A DNA stretch of 64,000 nt from Escherichia coli (GTDB lineage: Bacteria > Pseudomonadota > Gammaproteobacteria > Enterobacterales > Enterobacteriaceae): assembly GCF_003018115.1 (NCBI RefSeq), contig NZ_CP027457.1; one strand, written 5' to 3'. The notes beneath the pieces were generated by a model. The model was not told the DNA's origin and did no database searches. It was given only the letters and a program-made list of their open reading frames with translations. Each line of letters starts with the position of its first letter. Positions within the stretch are counted from its first letter, which is position 1. The position numbers were made by a program, and so were the translations under genes. Shown one piece after another: positions 1 to 33,355 of this stretch.

Positions 1-194
1 AAACCATCTGTTTTTGTGGCCGTAAAGCAAGCATGGTGCTGCGTCTTGATCAAGCAGGCAGACCTTATAACGAAGGTGAGCAGGTGGTTATTGGTGGTAA
101 TGAACGATACGTTTCTGTATGCCGTAAACACTATAAAGAGGCGTTACAAGTCGGCTCATTAACGGCTATTCAGGAAAGGCATCGCCACGATTAA
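1..194 (+). CDS. tdk: thymidine kinase, 3' partial (C-terminal zinc-ribbon region)
   Basis: In-frame translation ends ...[24 protein letters not shown]; matches Tdk C-terminus and the K-12 gene order tdk-adhE. Confidence 0.8.
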
Positions 195-442
195 TAAGAA
201 TTTCTTTACTGACAGGGTGAGCAGGGCACTTTTATCCTGTCAGTTCGTTTTACGCACTTCTTCCGGGCTATACACCCTTCGCGGTAGTTTTTAACGCCGC
301 TATACGCCTCACAGAGCGCTTAAGCACCGACGTTGACTAATGACCTGTAAAGTACAATATCGCTGTGTGTAGGCGTTATACATCGCTGCAAATATGATGA
401 AGGCTAATGCTGTCGGTTTATGGAATAGTTGCTTTAGGAAAA

Positions 443-470
443 CAAAAAAACGGCCCCAGAAGGGGCCGTT
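443..470 (-). terminator. intrinsic terminator downstream of adhE
   Basis: GC hairpin cggcccc/ggggccg followed by a T-run on the minus strand, 25 nt after the adhE stop. Confidence 0.6.
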
Positions 471-494
471 TATGTTGCCAGACAGCGCTACTGA

Positions 495-3170
495 TTAAGC
501 GGATTTTTTCGCTTTTTTCTCAGCTTTAGCCGGAGCGGCTTCTTTTTTCGCTGCAGTTTCGCCTTCTACATAATCACGACCGTAGTAGGTATCCAGCAGA
601 ATCTGTTTCAGCTCGGAGATCAGCGGGTAACGCGGGTTAGCGCCAGTGCACTGGTCATCGAATGCATCTTCAGACAGTTTATCCACGTTCGCCAGGAAGT
701 CTGCTTCCTGAACGCCAGCTTCACGGATAGATTTCGGAATACCCAGTTCAGCCTTCAGCGTTTCCAGCCATGCCAGCAGTTTCTCGATCTTAGCAGCAGT
801 ACGGTCGCCCGGTGCGCTCAGACCCAGGTGGTCGGCAATTTCAGCATAACGACGGCGAGCCTGCGGACGGTCATACTGGCTGAATGCAGTCTGCTTGGTC
901 GGGTTGTCGTTCGCATTGTAGCGAATAACGTTACAAATCAGCAGGGCGTTTGCCAGACCGTGCGGAATATGGAACTGGGAACCCAGTTTGTGCGCCATTG
1001 AGTGACATACACCCAGGAAGGCGTTCGCAAACGCGATACCCGCGATAGTCGCTGCACTGTGAACACGTTCACGCGCTACCGGATTTTTAGACCCTTCGTG
1101 GTAGGACGCTGGCAGATATTCTTTCAGCAGTTTCAGTGCCTGCAGAGCCTGACCATCAGAGAACTCAGATGCCAGTACAGAAACATAAGCTTCCATGGCG
1201 TGAGTTACTGCGTCCAGACCACCGAAAGCACACAGGGACTTCGGCATGTCCATAACCAGGTTGGCGTCGACAATCGCCATATCCGGGGTCAGCGCATAGT
1301 CCGCCAGCGGGTATTTCTGACCAGTAGCGTCGTCAGTTACAACCGCAAACGGAGTGACTTCAGAACCTGTACCAGAAGTGGTGGTGACAGCAATCATTTT
1401 CGCTTTCACGCCCATTTTCGGGAACTTGTAGATACGTTTACGGATATCCATAAAGCGCAGCGCCAGCTCTTCGAAGTGAGTTTCCGGATGTTCGTACATA
1501 ACCCACATGATCTTCGCGGCGTCCATCGGGGAACCACCACCCAGCGCGATAATCACGTCTGGTTTGAAGGAGTTTGCCAGTTCTGCACCTTTACGAACGA
1601 TGCTCAGGGTCGGATCCGCTTCTACTTCGAAGAAGACTTCAGTTTCAACGCCTGCTGCTTTCAGTACGGAAGTGATCTGATCAGCATAACCATTGTTGAA
1701 CAGGAAGCGGTCAGTCACGATGAGCGCACGTTTGTGGCCATCAGTAATCACTTCATCCAGCGCGATTGGCAGGGAGCCACGGCGGAAGTAGATAGATTTC
1801 GGAAGTTTGTGCCACAACATGTTTTCAGCTCGCTTAGCAACGGTTTTCTTGTTGATCAGGTGTTTCGGACCAACGTTTTCAGAGATGGAGTTACCACCCC
1901 AGGAACCACAACCCAGAGTCAGGGAAGGTGCGAGTTTGAAGTTATACAGGTCACCGATACCACCCTGAGAAGCCGGGGTGTTAATCAGGATACGAGCCGT
2001 TTTCATTTTCTGACCGAAGTAAGAAACGCGAGCCGGTTGGTTATCCTGGTCAGTGTACAGGCAAGAGGTATGACCGATACCACCCATAGCAACCAGTTTC
2101 TCTGCTTTTTCTACCGCGTCTTCGAAATCTTTAGCGCGGTACATTGCCAGAGTCGGGGACAGTTTTTCATGTGCGAACGGTTCGCTTTCATCAACAACGG
2201 TCACTTCACCGATCAGAATCTTGGTGTTTTCTGGTACAGAGAAGCCTGCCAGTTCAGCAATTTTATAGGCTGGCTGACCAACGATAGCCGCGTTCAGCGC
2301 ACCGTTTTTCAGGATAACATCCTGAACAGCTTTCAGCTCTTTACCCTGCAACAGATAGCCGCCGTGGGTTGCGAAACGTTCACGTACTGCGTCATAAACA
2401 GAGTCAACAACAACAACAGACTGTTCAGAAGCACAGATTACGCCGTTGTCGAAGGTTTTGGACATCAGTACAGATGCAACTGCACGTTTGATATCAGCAG
2501 TTTCATCGATAACAACCGGAGTGTTACCCGCGCCTACGCCGATAGCTGGTTTACCGGAGCTGTATGCGGCTTTAACCATGCCCGGACCACCAGTCGCGAG
2601 GATCAGGTTGATGTCTGGGTGGTGCATCAGTGCGTTAGACAGTTCAACAGAAGGTTGATCGATCCAGCCGATCAGATCTTTCGGAGCACCGGCAGCGATA
2701 GCAGCCTGCAGAACGATATCAGCCGCTTTGTTGGTGGCATCTTTTGCACGCGGGTGCGGGGAGAAGATAATGGCGTTACGGGTCTTCAGGCTGATCAGCG
2801 ATTTGAAGATAGCAGTTGAAGTCGGGTTAGTGGTCGGAACGATACCGCAAATAATACCGATTGGTTCAGCGATAGTGATGGTACCAAAAGTGTCGTCTTC
2901 AGACAGAACACCACAGGTTTTTTCATCTTTATAGGCGTTGTAGATATATTCAGAAGCAAAGTGGTTTTTGATCACTTTATCTTCGACGATACCCATGCCG
3001 GATTCGGCAACGGCCATTTTCGCGAGTGGGATTCGAGCATCTGCAGCAGCCAGAGCGGCGGCGCGGAAGATTTTGTCTACTTGCTCTTGAGTGAAACTGG
3101 CATATTCACGCTGGGCTTTTTTTACACGCTCTACGAGTGCGTTAAGTTCAGCGACATTAGTAACAGCCAT
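495..3170 (-). CDS. adhE: bifunctional acetaldehyde-CoA/alcohol dehydrogenase
   Basis: 891-aa ORF, full-length AdhE sequence ([20 protein letters not shown]...). Confidence 0.97.
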
Positions 3171-3646
3171 AATGCTCTCCTGATAATGTTAAACTTTTTT
3201 AGTAAATCATCTGCTCGAATACGAGAGTATAGTCAGTGCGGTGATGATTTGCTTAACCGATGAAAATCAAAAGCTTACTCGCGCTCACACTCACTGTGAT
3301 TTACTAAAAGAGTTTAAACATTAGAGTTATTATCTCTAATGCGTCACTTCCAGGTGGCGTAAGCAAGATTACTCACTTCTGGGTACTGATTACGTGATCC
3401 AAATCAAATTTTTGCAAAGCTGACACCTTTCAGCATCGCTTTTCGCCATTATAGCTAACAGTTAATAAATTGTAGTATGATTTGATGGCTACATTAGCAT
3501 GTTTTGTACAACTAGATAACAATAACGAATGATAGCAATTTTAAGTAGTTAGGAGGTGAAAAATGCTGTCAAAAGGCGTATTGTCAGCGCGTCTTTTCAA
3601 CCTTATTTATGGCTAACATTATCCGGCTTTTGCTTCGGAGCTAACC

Positions 3647-4294
3647 GTGATTCAGACCCTTTTTGATTTTCCCGTTTACTTCAAATTTTTCATCGGGTTA
3701 TTTGCGCTGGTCAACCCGGTAGGGATTATTCCCGTCTTTATCAGCATGACCAGTTATCAGACAGCGGCAGCGCGAAACAAAACTAACCTTACAGCCAACC
3801 TGTCTGTGGCCATTATCTTGTGGATCTCGCTTTTTCTCGGCGACACGATTCTACAACTTTTTGGTATATCAATTGATTCGTTCCGTATCGCCGGGGGTAT
3901 CCTGGTGGTGACAATAGCGATGTCAATGATCAGCGGCAAGCTTGGCGAGGATAAACAGAACAAGCAAGAAAAATCAGAAACCGCGGTACGTGAAAGCATT
4001 GGTGTGGTGCCACTGGCGTTGCCGTTGATGGCGGGGCCAGGGGCGATCAGTTCTACCATCGTCTGGGGTACGCGTTATCACAGCATTAGCTATCTGTTTG
4101 GTTTCTTTGTGGCTATTGCATTGTTCGCTTTATGTTGCTGGGGATTGTTCCGCATGGCACCGTGGCTGGTACGGGTTTTACGCCAGACCGGCATCAACGT
4201 GATTACGCGTATTATGGGGCTATTGCTGATGGCATTGGGGATTGAATTTATCGTTACTGGTATTAAGGGGATTTTCCCCGGCCTGCTTAATTAA
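3647..4294 (+). CDS. ychE: MarC-family inner membrane protein
   Basis: 215-aa multi-TM ORF, GTG start, conserved position between adhE and oppA. Confidence 0.85.
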   Translation: MIQTLFDFPVYFKFFIGLFALVNPVGIIPVFISMTSYQTAAARNKTNLTANLSVAIILWISLFLGDTILQLFGISIDSFRIAGGILVVTIAMSMISGKLGEDKQNKQEKSETAVRESIGVVPLALPLMAGPGAISSTIVWGTRYHSISYLFGFFVAIALFALCCWGLFRMAPWLVRVLRQTGINVITRIMGLLLMALGIEFIVTGIKGIFPGLLN

Positions 4295-5031
4295 TTCCTC
4301 TCAAATGAAACGGAGCTGCCATGCTCCGTTTACTTCGTCATTATTTTTACTTTGTTCCTGCGCAGTTATCAAAAGCAAAAGGAATAGGTAAAAATATTCT
4401 TCTCAAATTACAGTTAGTTATAAGGATTTCCTTAACTGCTTCTCTTCACCATCATGTTATTTTCGCCACATCATAATCCTGGGCTTGCTGAAGAATAATT
4501 GAAATGATATTAGTAATTCCACTGCCTTTGGTAGAGGAAAGTGCTAAATAATAATCAATTGTTAAATTATTGTGCATTTCACTACTGGAACTGTAATCAG
4601 AAAAGATAGACATGCTTAACCAATCTCTATTTGATTGAATTGAAAGATGTTTGTTAAGACATGGATGCAAGCTATAGATTCTGATACGGTCAATAAAAGA
4701 GAATTGCTTAACAATTTTGCAAAATGTATTGGCGAGTAAGAAGCGCATTTGGTACTTTCCGGGCAACCGCCAGGCGATTCTTTATTGGTAATGAGAATAA
4801 TTAACAATTAAAGAGCGTCGTGAAAGAATAATGTGTCTCGACAGGGGAGACACAGTACGAATCGACATAAGGTGATCGTCTGAATCACCAGAATAAATAA
4901 AGTCGGTGATAGCAATACGTAACGATAAAGTAACCTGACAGCAGAAAGTCTCCGAGCCTGTGCAGGGTCCCAATCCGGGATTACACATGCTGGTTAATAC
5001 CAGTAATTATAATGAGGGAGTCCAAAAAACA

Positions 5032-28382: not shown

Positions 28383-28544
28383 CCAGGCCTGAGGCATTCG
28401 TAACGGTAGGAGTTGCAATGGCGGTAGCGCTGGTGGTTTATTCGATTTGCCGCTGGGGTTGACGTAATTACTAATCCGGGGCTATATTCACCGCACGGTC
28501 GAGTTGACCGTCGGGATTGAGACCCCGGATATTCAACCGCGACA

Positions 28545-28575
28545 GACACACGCCGCGAGCGTGTTTTTTATTGTC
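28545..28575 (+). terminator. intrinsic terminator
   Basis: Hairpin acacgccgcgagcgtgt followed by ttttttatt. Confidence 0.5.
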
Positions 28576-28733
28576 GTATGCGCACGCACATCTGAATTAT
28601 GGTGAGGCGTATGGGGCAGCCGAAAGGCTGGCCGGTTGGTTGATCCGGTAGTCTCAACCCTGTACGTCTCGCCACCTGATGATTGAGACCTGAAGGTGGT
28701 GATAGTTAAATTCATCAACCAGAGGGCGTTATC

Positions 28734-29285
28734 ATGACGACTCAAGTTACTGTCAAAAACCTTTCCCCTGTCACTTATAACCAGATTCCTGTAATCACAA
28801 CTGAGTTACTCGCCCGCCTTTACGGAACAGAAGCAATCCGTATACAGCAGAATCACCATGAAAATAAATCTCGATTTATTGAGGGAAAACACTTCTTTAA
28901 AGCTGTTGGTGATGAGCTCAAAAATTTGCGACTAGTTTTAAACGAGTCGCAAAATGAGGTGAAAATTTCTCCCAAAACCCGCACTCTCATCCTCTGGACA
29001 GAACGCGGAGCAGCCCGTCATGCAAAAATGCTCGAAACCGATCAGGCGTGGGAAGTATTCGAAAAACTCGAAGACAGTTACTTCAACCAGTACGAGAAAG
29101 AGCGGGCTATGGGAAAAATGAATATCGATTTTCATCTGGCGATCCGTGACGATAAAACCGCCTTCATCCGAAGTTATGCGCCTGGCCAGCTGGTGACGGT
29201 TGAAGAAGCCCTGGCTTTGCTTAAATCGCGCGGATGGCTGGTAATGCCACGAGATGAACTGGCCGGAAAATTAATGGAGCTTTAA
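28734..29285 (+). CDS. phage protein, ORF6N-type (Rha/antirepressor-like) domain
   Basis: 183 aa; motif LILWTERGAARHAKMLETDQAWEVFEKLEDSYF recalled as typical of ORF6N-domain proteins. Confidence 0.65.
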   Translation: MTTQVTVKNLSPVTYNQIPVITTELLARLYGTEAIRIQQNHHENKSRFIEGKHFFKAVGDELKNLRLVLNESQNEVKISPKTRTLILWTERGAARHAKMLETDQAWEVFEKLEDSYFNQYEKERAMGKMNIDFHLAIRDDKTAFIRSYAPGQLVTVEEALALLKSRGWLVMPRDELAGKLMEL

Positions 29286-29556
29286 CCGATTGAGTTAACC
29301 TTGATATGGGAATTCCCATATCGGGAGAACATTACCATCGGGGATAAAATGATTTGCGGGGAAAGAAGAGTTAAGTAGAATTGCTGCGGGTGCTTGAGGC
29401 TGTCTGCCTCGGGCATGCCGCCGTAAGGCAGACAGAGAAAAGCCCCAGTTAACATTACGCGTCTTGCAGGACGCTTAACATTAATCTGAGGCCAATTTCA
29501 TGCTTTGCACATGTAGGTTAGCCTCTTACGTGCCGAAAGGCAAGGAGAAGCAGGCT

Positions 29557-29712
29557 ATGAAGCAGCAAAAGGCGATGTTAATCGCCCTGATTGTCATCTG
29601 TTTAACCGTCATAGTGACGGCACTGGTAACGAGGAAAGACCTCTGCGAGGTACGAATCCGAACCGGCCAGACGGAGGTCGCTGTCTTCACAGCTTACGAA
29701 CCTGAGGAGTAA
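29557..29712 (+). CDS. hokD: Hok/Gef family type I toxin (HokD/RelF-like)
   Basis: 51-aa product MKQQKAMLIALIVICLTVIVTALVTRKDLCEVRIRTGQTEVAVFTAYEPEE; strong AAGGAG Shine-Dalgarno; the same frame is open 19 codons upstream (Mok-like leader). Confidence 0.88.
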   Translation: MKQQKAMLIALIVICLTVIVTALVTRKDLCEVRIRTGQTEVAVFTAYEPEE

Positions 29713-29814
29713 GAGACCTGGCGAGGGAGAAATCCCTCGCCACCTCTGATGTGTCAGGCATCCTCAACGCACCCGCACTTAACCTGCTTCGGCGGGTTTT
29801 GTTGTATTAGAATA

Positions 29815-30132
29815 TCAGGATATTACCTGGATCCCGTTTTTCTCGACAACTGAAAGAAGCCGAAGAGCTGCACCTCCCGGGCGTTTCACTCCTCGTTCCC
29901 AGTCTGATATCAGGTTTTTACTGACGTTGAGGTATCTGGCAAAAACAGGTTGAGACAGATGCTCTCGTTCTCGCAGTGCACGGATCCTTTCTGGAGACAT
30001 TACCGGCGCAGGCTGAAGACAAGTTTCATCGAATTCGCGCATAGTTTGTTTTGTGATTGCACCGATATCATGGAGTGACTCCATCATTTCATGTACAGAT
30101 GCAAGTGCATCACTGCGGTAATTTTTACTCAT
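29815..30132 (-). CDS. HigA-like antitoxin (XRE-family HTH)
   Basis: 105 aa, HTH LSQPVFARYLNVSKNLISDWERG; 8-nt overlap with the upstream toxin gene (toxin-first arrangement). Confidence 0.8.
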   Translation of the reverse strand: MSKNYRSDALASVHEMMESLHDIGAITKQTMREFDETCLQPAPVMSPERIRALREREHLSQPVFARYLNVSKNLISDWERGVKRPGGAALRLLSVVEKNGIQVIS

Positions 30133-30497
30133 TGGGTACCTCCGTGAACTGGCCTTGTTGAATCAATTGTGCCAGCTGTTCATCAGTAAGATTGAGGACA
30201 TGGGGAGCGGCTTTTCGAAAAGCATTTTCCTCTATAGCAGTGATATTCTCTCGTTCATTCTTTGCGTATGCGTAGATGAAAAAGGCTTTTTCTGCAACGC
30301 GGTAAAAAATTATTGTCCGGTAACCGCCTGATTTTCCGCCACCACTTCGGGCTAATCTTTGTTTAATGACACCACTACCCAAATTTGCGGATATGATCCC
30401 CCTTATCGGCCTGCTCCACGATTTTGCGTAGCGATTTATCGGAAATCCGATGTTTTCGGGCGAAACGTTCAAACCAGGCGTTTTTGAAAATTCGCAT
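30125..30497 (-). pseudogene. HigB-like RelE/ParE-superfamily toxin, disrupted by a 1-nt frameshift in a homopolymer
   Basis: Canonical N-terminus MRIFKNAWFERFARKHRISDKSLRKIVEQADKG is in one frame and stops after 40 codons; the conserved core ANLGSGVIKQRLARSGGGKSGGYRTIIFYR... is in the +1 frame; frames switch at a C5 run (plus 30398-30402). Confidence 0.6.
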
Positions 30498-30720
30498 ACC
30501 TGCCTCTGCATTTTATATAACACATAGTGTTACACCATGTGGACTATGGAGGCAATCTTTATTTGAGAATGCTTGCTGATTTATCGGTGTTCAAAAAACA
30601 GACGTAATTCAGATTGTATAAACGGCAGACAGAAAAAGTCATTGTTCTTGCGCATAAAATCCTCAGATTTACTGAGTGAAATGCGTCTCTTTTCATGGTT
30701 ATAGTCCGAGAGAAGCGATA

Positions 30721-32334: not shown

Positions 32335-32697
32335 ATGCTCATAGATTTGGTTTTACCTTACCCGCCGACGGTGAACACTTACTGGCGACGCCGTGGCAGC
32401 ACATATTTTGTATCAAAAGCCGGGGAGCGTTATCGCCGGGCAGTGGCGCTTATTGTTCGCCAGCAGCGACTGAAATTAAGCCTGTCCGGACGGCTGGCAA
32501 TAAAAATTATTGCAGAGCCACCGGATAAGCGCCGCCGTGACCTGGACAATATTCTGAAAGCACCGCTGGATGCGCTGACGCACGCGGGGTTGTTAATGGA
32601 CGATGAGCAGTTTGATGAAATCAATATTGTACGTGGCAAGCCAGTATCTGGTGGACGGCTGGAGATAATAATTACAGAGGTGGGTGTGCATGAATAA
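32335..32697 (+). CDS. rusA: crossover junction endodeoxyribonuclease RusA (Holliday junction resolvase)
   Basis: 120 aa; PPTVNTYWRRRG...RRDLDNILKAPLDALTHAGLLMDDEQF characteristic of RusA. Confidence 0.9.
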   Translation: MLIDLVLPYPPTVNTYWRRRGSTYFVSKAGERYRRAVALIVRQQRLKLSLSGRLAIKIIAEPPDKRRRDLDNILKAPLDALTHAGLLMDDEQFDEINIVRGKPVSGGRLEIIITEVGVHE

Positions 32698-33355
32698 CCA
32701 GTATTTACAGTTTGTTCGTGAGCAACTCATGATTGCCACTGCGGATCTTAGTGGGTCGACAAAAGGCCAGCTGGAAGTCTGGCAGGAAAATGCCCTGTTC
32801 GATACAGGGCGTTACAGACGCAAAAAAATTCGTTACCGCGATGAGGTAACCGGAAAAATGATCACGCGGGATAATCCCCCGATCCCGGGTAAACAATCAC
32901 TGGCGAAAGGCTCATCAATTGCCCTGGTCAGTCCGGTTGAGTTTTCGACATCATCATGGCGACGCGCCGTTCTGTCTCTTGAAGAACATCATAAAGCCTG
33001 GCTGCTGTGGTGTTACAGCGGTAGCATTTGCTGGGAGCATCAGATCGCGATAACGCAGTGGGCGTGGACTGAATTTAATGCTCAATCCGGTACCAGAAAA
33101 ATTGCAGGAAAAACTCTGGTGCGCCTGAAGACGTTGATCTGGTTGGCGGCGCAGGCGGTAAAAGCTGAGCTTTTTGGTGGGGAAGGTTACGAATACCAGG
33201 AACTGGCGTTACTGGTGGGAGTAACAACCAAAAACTGGTCCAAGACATTTACTGGTCACTGGGTTGCAATGAAACACATTTTTCATCGGCTGGATAGTGA
33301 AGCTTTATTGTTGGTGGAGGGAACACGTTCAAAACAAAAGGCGGCATTTTCATAG
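32690..33355 (+). CDS. late-gene antitermination protein Q (phage 21/82-type)
   Basis: 221 aa from ATG with GAGGTGG Shine-Dalgarno; position after rusA, before the late promoter and lysis genes. Confidence 0.75.
   Translation: MNNQYLQFVREQLMIATADLSGSTKGQLEVWQENALFDTGRYRRKKIRYRDEVTGKMITRDNPPIPGKQSLAKGSSIALVSPVEFSTSSWRRAVLSLEEHHKAWLLWCYSGSICWEHQIAITQWAWTEFNAQSGTRKIAGKTLVRLKTLIWLAAQAVKAELFGGEGYEYQELALLVGVTTKNWSKTFTGHWVAMKHIFHRLDSEALLLVEGTRSKQKAAFS

Follow-up and report, generated by a model that had tools for sequence, protein, structure and literature searches.

A frameshifted HigB2-type toxin gene beside an intact antitoxin gene in an Escherichia coli prophage

Does a prophage toxin gene that is interrupted at a run of five identical bases still encode a toxin? 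The gene in question lies on the minus strand of a 64,000-nucleotide stretch of Escherichia coli DNA, termed the window throughout. It was originally predicted to be a HigB-like toxin gene split by a single-nucleotide frameshift in a C5/G5 homopolymer, and therefore either inactivated beside an orphan HigA-like antitoxin, controlled by slip-strand switching at the run, or a product of sequencing error.

Frame structure and family of the toxin gene

On the minus strand, the ATG at 30497 opens a reading frame of 40 codons (30497..30375; MRIFKNAWFERFARKHRISDKSLRKIVEQADKGDHIRKFG) ending at a TAG at 30377-30375. This N-terminal fragment comprises 33 native residues, MRIFKNAWFERFARKHRISDKSLRKIVEQADKG, followed by seven out-of-frame residues. 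The conserved core, containing ANLGSGVIKQRLARSGGGKSGGYRTIIFYR, occupies the adjacent frame within an ORF of 132 aa that begins at a GTG (30523..30125) and terminates at a TAA at 30127-30125. The frames join at a run of five G on the coding strand (30398..30402, C5 on the plus strand), which alignment places at codons K32-G33 (AAG GGG), and the minus strand at the junction reads ...GCC GAT AAG GGG GAT CAT ATC CGC AAA TTT GGG TAG. The start, the 40-codon length, the GTG-initiated frame and the meeting point were all as originally predicted.

Comparison of the repaired protein with the window by tblastn aligned residues 1-33 at 30497-30399 and residues 32-123 at 30403-30128 in a different frame, the C-terminal part extending over 30125..30403 with its stop codon included. 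Deletion of one G in silico yielded a single ORF, as anticipated, although of 372 nt and 123 aa instead of the expected length of about 117 aa. The comparison with intact homologues that had been proposed as a check identified strain 6883, whose intact 372-nt gene (WP_001217944.1) differs from the window copy by G4 and one synonymous SNP; the sole indel in the alignment is one G in the run. Because the frameshift was called directly against an intact allele, chance does not enter into the result. An uninterrupted reading frame across the whole domain is absent from the window copy, in which the +1 insertion follows codon 33 and brings a stop codon into frame at position 41. With 373 nt (30125..30497, minus strand) against the 372 nt or 123 codons of intact alleles, the window copy is a PF06296-family pseudogene.

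The repaired 123-aa protein was matched to Pfam RelE (PF06296) over positions 1-120 of 120 (E 1.5e-47), and its closest solved counterparts by sequence in the PDB were chains of Vibrio cholerae HigB-2 (E about 4e-4). The repaired toxin had 2,331 relatives in a database of 1.84 billion representative proteins. For most of the 150 best-scoring relatives, the alignment began at the first or second residue of both the relative and the query, indicating that the canonical N-terminus belongs to the family. In an alignment of 82 sequences, K45, R60 and K79 were invariant and F9, L23 and G33 nearly invariant, the codon of G33 being the GGG within the homopolymer run.

An AlphaFold2 model of the repaired toxin, built with this alignment as input (pLDDT 95.4), comprised a strand at 2-6, helices at 7-15 and 20-31, four strands within 37-78 and C-terminal helices. 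The break site lies between helix 2 and strand 2, with F9, L23 and G33 on its N-terminal side and K45, R60 and K79 on its C-terminal side. According to the model, the 33 native residues of the N-terminal fragment correspond to strand 1, helix 1 and helix 2, and residues 32-123 to the beta-sheet core and C-terminal helices. The top 11 Foldseek matches to the model in the PDB were all V. cholerae HigB2 (probability 0.96-1.00, TM 0.52-0.68). Sequence and modelled fold together support the assignment of the repaired protein as a full-length PF06296/HigB2-type toxin of the RelE/ParE superfamily. A scan of the repaired toxin against NCBIfam matched no family, PADLOC returned none for the toxin, and PHROGs yielded only families of unknown function.

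V. cholerae HigBA2 (HigB-2/HigA-2; PDB 5jaa, 5ja8, 8a0x) is the prototype of PF06296. The window toxin shares the full-length Pfam match and has HigB2 as its best PDB match both by sequence and by fold (the latter with probability 1.00 and TM 0.53-0.68), and the toxin gene stands ahead of the antitoxin gene in both modules. However, the identity of the window toxin to HigB2 is only 19-25%, the module resides in a lambdoid E. coli prophage and not in the Vibrio superintegron, and the window toxin, unlike HigB2, is a frameshifted, decayed copy whose likeness is drawn from sequence and model. A survey of the family describes ribosome-dependent mRNA-degrading toxins (HigB2, RelE or StbE) encoded before their antitoxins; ribosome-dependent mRNA cleavage, growth arrest and neutralisation by the antitoxin are properties of the family taken from this literature (PMC11980606).

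Distribution of the G5 and G4 alleles

A survey of 5,426 complete E. coli genomes located the 821-bp locus in 214, always on the chromosome, and no plasmid-borne copies were present among the E. coli records matched. Thirteen of the 214, 07-4299 and RM7190 among them, were 100% identical to the window over the 821 bp, G5 included. Alleles were counted using queries too short to seed across the length difference, namely a 49-mer for G5 and a 48-mer for G4, which located G5 in 53 genomes and G4 in 116 genomes (121 places). These two alleles cover all 168 records of at least 95% identity, among which neither G3 nor G6 was found. At each G4 locus opened, the annotation gave an intact toxin of 123 aa. 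G5 occurs in lineages of LEE-negative-type STEC, e.g. O91, O113:H21, O104:H21, O178:H19 and O22:H8, and G4 in O157 (O157:H7), O26, O145, O103 and O111.

Homopolymer indels are the commonest error of long-read sequencing, and as only a single base in a homopolymer is at issue, the true genome might carry G4. Against this, an identical G5 is present in 53 complete genomes sequenced by many groups (CDC, USDA, Japanese, Canadian and Chinese sets) on many platforms and is linked to SNP haplotypes, and 13 genomes agree with the window at every position of the 821-bp locus. The projects that report G5 also report G4 in other lineages (O157, O26, O145). Two near-identical O104:H21 records, CP009106.2 (length 4,884,464) and CP023541.1 (length 4,884,467), which are taken to be one strain deposited twice, agree on G5. 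An error peculiar to this assembly was rejected on the basis of the 53 genomes and the G4 calls from the same projects, and a sequencing artefact is scarcely credible as an explanation. As judged from these comparisons, G5 is a real, inherited allele.

The presence of both G4 and G5 in the population is also what would be seen if the run were a contingency tract that switched the toxin between on and off states at a useful rate. Comparison of 16 haplotypes placed G5 on several local haplotypes. Site 29992 carries A in nine of the ten sampled G5 loci (the window counted) and in a single G4 strain, 6883, whereas CFIAFB20190157 combines G5 with the G found at 29992 in the other G4 alleles. Run length and site 29992 thus occur in all four combinations. 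Such a pattern can arise only through recombination or a second round of slippage and could be read in favour of switching, as could the observation that other decayed copies are likewise broken at homopolymers. However, the haplotype comparison also revealed the flanks of the locus to be a recombination mosaic, so that recombination is enough to account for the four combinations; recurrent slippage is a possible origin.

The tract itself also argues against a switch. Contingency loci usually contain seven or more repeat units, whereas the tract is only 4-5 nt long; the toxin gene contains no long simple-sequence tract (about 7+ units), its other homopolymers being 4-6 nt and none longer. Only two tract lengths exist, and their distribution mostly follows serotype or lineage, with one four-gamete conflict, at 29992, that mosaics can explain. 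The run is not conserved across homologous loci, as the corresponding position in a sister allele 84% identical to that of the window reads GATAACGGGCTT (AACGGGC) and lacks the run. Furthermore, switching on a toxin that is neutralised by its antitoxin would have no obvious phenotype. The window toxin resembles the contingency loci of Neisseria, Haemophilus and Campylobacter in that a 1-nt change in a G/C homopolymer within the coding region shifts the frame, but differs from them in its tract of 4-5 nt against about 7 or more, in having two lineage-tied states and in the lack of conservation in the sister allele. The on/off switch of the original prediction is thus unsupported as a designed mechanism. 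A dedicated slip-strand switch is unlikely, and we give switching at a useful rate only a slim chance; rare slippage in either direction at the run is possible.

Start site and alternative routes to expression

A Shine-Dalgarno sequence, GAGG, is located at 30503..30506 (minus strand), 5 nt ahead of the canonical ATG at 30497. Both the GTG at 30523 and an ATG in frame with it at 30511 lie upstream of this element, within the block TGTAACACTATGTGTTATATA. Read by eye, the block holds an extended -10-like sequence, TGTTATATA, at 30522-30514 together with one half of the imperfect palindrome ACATGGTGT-A-ACACTATGT at 30540-30522, both on the minus strand. The stretch TGTAAYACTATGTGTTATA is the best-conserved part of the leader between the window allele and the 84%-identical sister allele. 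The motifs and their conservation suggest that 30514..30540 (minus strand) may be a promoter/operator. A consensus promoter scan detected no site directly upstream of the ATG, its sole minus-strand site lying further upstream at 30642-30613, and the palindrome at 30540-30522 was absent from the output of the repeat finder.

RefSeq presents the G5 allele either as a 132-aa protein initiated at the GTG (WP_236940275.1) or as two CDSs of 40 aa (WP_001365959.1) and 85 aa (WP_024173694.1). In the loci opened, the split CDSs carry the RefSeq/PGAP label 'RelE/ParE family toxin' and the pseudogene flag was never applied to G5. The representative of the 50%-identity cluster (P0001) is itself frameshifted, having been called from the ATG at 30511.

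These annotations lend some weight to the possibility that a functional product is still expressed, whether by initiation at GTG 30523 or ATG 30511, by +1 frameshifting on AAG-GGG-G, or by reassembly of the 40-aa product with the 85-aa product started at TTG 30382. The downstream frame preserves K45, R60 and K79, and at GGG-G, as seen in the sequence, tRNA-Gly could re-pair perfectly after a +1 shift. The upstream starts, however, precede the Shine-Dalgarno sequence and fall in the putative promoter block, and the canonical N-terminus is the start in most of the 150 top-scoring representatives of the family. A protein initiated at either codon would have a substituted N-terminus without strand 1 and helices 1-2, which belong to the modelled fold. 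Translation from GTG 30523 or ATG 30511 was rejected, as out-of-frame sequence would replace these elements. The GTG start with a non-canonical N-terminus, which had been named as an outcome that would overturn the prediction, is accordingly unsupported. Because the GTG is upstream of the Shine-Dalgarno sequence and family members begin at the canonical N-terminus, the 132-aa ORF is an annotation artefact; the 132-aa, 40-aa and 85-aa RefSeq products are gene-caller output and do not in themselves demonstrate expression.

The frameshifting route fares no better. The zero-frame codon after GGG is a common GAU rather than a stop, so a +1 stimulator is missing; by the standard of prfB-type programmed +1 frameshifting, GAU is neither a stop nor rare, and no Shine-Dalgarno-like element was seen upstream. 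Nor is the frameshift conserved, intact alleles being single-frame. Programmed +1 frameshifting was rejected since homologues are single-frame, the next codon is an ordinary GAU and a stimulator is lacking. Background slippage on GGG-G alone is conceivable, and spontaneous +1 slippage of tRNA-Gly there, or re-initiation at TTG 30382, could give traces of full-length toxin. Taken together, continued expression of a functional toxin by any of these routes is very improbable.

An intact antitoxin and repeated loss of the toxin

The second gene of the module encodes an intact HigA2-like antitoxin of 105 aa (29815..30132, minus strand) with an HTH_3 domain at residues 50-94 (Pfam E 1.4e-7). Its ATG overlaps the stop codon of the toxin (ATGAGTAA), and it is preceded by a Shine-Dalgarno sequence of its own, GGAGG, at 30143-30139 (minus strand). 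Among solved proteins its closest match is V. cholerae HigA-2 (5jaa_A, E 6.7e-8), which is equal in length to the window antitoxin and alike in layout, with a C-terminal HTH in both. The operon layout in which a toxin gene is followed by that of an HTH (Xre-type) HigA2-like antitoxin is therefore present at the window locus, and the combination of a PF06296 toxin with an overlapping HigA-2-like partner identifies a HigBA2-type type II module. Within its lambdoid prophage the module occupies the early-right region, flanked on one side by an ORF6N antirepressor-like gene and hokD/sok and on the other by DUF968, RusA and Q antiterminator genes.

An identical antitoxin protein (WP_000042395.1) occurs in almost every G4 and G5 genome sampled; the antitoxin was intact in 19 of the 19 loci opened, and a regulator is annotated at each listed match. 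The G5 genomes of O22:H8 strain 154 and UC4316 exhibit a change of the antitoxin Shine-Dalgarno sequence from GGAGG to AGAGG (equivalent of 30143), and UC4316 also carries a variant antitoxin protein, WP_198458791.1. The G to A change in these two genomes may represent the onset of antitoxin decay following loss of the toxin.

The most satisfactory account, which we regard as highly likely, is that the window carries a heritable loss-of-function allele of the toxin in a prophage HigBA2-type operon, leaving the antitoxin/repressor orphaned. Slippage during replication, the most likely mutational mechanism, would have added one G to a G4 run at codons K32-G33. Translation from the ATG at 30497 now stops after codon 40, with the protein cut short between helix 2 and strand 2. 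Of the fold, this product retains only strand 1 and helices 1-2, and the beta-sheet core, which bears the invariant residues, is out of frame, for which reason the toxin is most probably inactive. The antitoxin is presumably still made from its own strong ribosome-binding site, as its sequence suggests, and would continue to repress the operon, so that the locus would now pair the remnant of a toxin gene with an orphan antitoxin. The G5 allele would have spread with the prophage lineage and via recombination. Decay of the toxin before the antitoxin is to be expected, since the toxin can be lost at no cost whereas prior loss of the antitoxin would be lethal. The remnant has acquired very few additional mutations and the antitoxin is unchanged, which points to a recent event or to continuing constraint on the locus. 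Of the three options in the original prediction, an inactivated toxin with an orphan HigA-like antitoxin is the one supported, by the full-length PF06296/HigB2 match and the HigA2-like partner.

Loss of the toxin has also occurred in related alleles. The 84%-identical sister allele has a frameshift from A5 to A4 at approximately codon 15 in O104:H4, in strain NCCP15648 and in phage PhiR12_3, and the O104:H4 copy has a further 1-nt deletion near codon 95. The loci concerned are 1540-1906 of L012 (O104:H4 2009EL-2050), L015 (NCCP15648) and L014 (phage PhiR12_3, PV340552); the sister-allele antitoxin, WP_000042397.1, is intact. An intact version of the sister allele is found in strain HCP4S3_I4. 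In the 37 full-length sister-allele loci of complete genomes, the gene measures 372 nt in six, 371 nt in ten and 370 nt in 21, i.e. a frameshifting length in 31 of 37, and a third allele of 78% identity is 372 nt long in 10 of 10 genomes. Frameshifted loci total about 84 of 221 (38%) and represent at least three independent events, a figure to be read with the provisos that an intact length is no proof of an intact ORF and that many of the O104:H4 genomes are clonal. Two more decayed copies, P0003 and P0091, were present among the representative proteins. The phage collection yielded only one relative, PhiR12_3, likewise frameshifted.

Toxin genes lost while the cognate antitoxin is kept have been described previously for the frameshifted YacB of Shigella flexneri pWR100 and for a Caulobacter parE pseudogene, and many orphan antitoxins have been interpreted as remnants or as anti-addiction factors (PMC7354431). 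YacB and parE-ParD resemble the window module in that a stop arising from a frameshift kills the toxin while the antitoxin gene is intact (PMC7354431). The window module differs from them in toxin family and replicon, and in the recurrence of the loss in sister alleles, at about 38% of loci. A literature search on the RefSeq protein accessions found nothing, and no paper was found on this E. coli prophage module.

Alternatively, the antitoxin may have been retained by selection for a role of its own, as an anti-addiction or immunity factor against the intact HigB2-type toxins of related lambdoid prophages that superinfect the host or are co-resident in it, with loss of the toxin itself selected and possibly reverted by rare slippage. 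The repeated frameshifts (G4 to G5, A5 to A4 and the O104:H4 deletion) would then reflect selection for toxin loss and not neutral decay. E. coli ST130 (CP043478), offered as an example of such co-resident prophages, has two copies of the module in two prophages approximately 175 kb apart, one with G5 and one with G4 and with identical antitoxins, and is a natural setting for cross-neutralisation. We consider this selective explanation improbable.

We thus interpret the locus, a HigBA2-family module of an E. coli prophage, as a case of ordinary toxin decay. The original observation is accurate, and no new mechanism emerges from it. The locus is one further clear instance of an established pattern in which the toxin of a HigBA2-type prophage module decays first, and repeatedly, leaving the antitoxin/repressor orphaned. 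Its main value lies in annotation, as RefSeq shows the broken toxin as an intact 'RelE/ParE family toxin', with the consequence that functional toxins are over-counted in inventories of Shiga-toxin-producing E. coli. The recurrent, independent loss of the toxin is a second useful by-product, and both extend to the O104:H4 outbreak lineage.

Several further features of the prophage were evident in the window. A hokD type I toxin ORF (29500-29712, plus strand), with a match to the sok antisense RNA at 29388-29562 (Rfam RF01794, 117 bits), stands tail-to-tail with the antitoxin gene, a hairpin terminator (29781-29798) lying between them; the proximity of hokD/sok to the HigBA2-type pair places two unrelated toxin-antitoxin modules next to one another in the prophage. 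Matches to isrK (RF01394) and C4 antisense RNA (RF01695) at 28495-28679 (plus strand) lie directly upstream of the ORF6N-domain gene (28734-29285), a layout that looks like the c4-antirepressor immunity module of the P1/P7 type inside a lambdoid prophage. Among the listed ORFs of at least 85 aa, no stx-like ORF was evident downstream of Q (32684-33355). A 654-aa ORF (40096-42060) may resemble the NanS-p esterases encoded downstream of stx in Stx phages. Genes for tRNA-Met (CAT) and tRNA-Arg (TCG) occupy 35942-36103 (plus strand), between a DNA methyltransferase-like ORF (34964-35902) and copies of the STnc100 sRNA family (RF02076). Five STnc100 copies (119-172 bits) were identified within 3 kb on the plus strand, downstream of Q and the tRNA genes, one at 36917-37129 and four near-tandem at 38889-39868.
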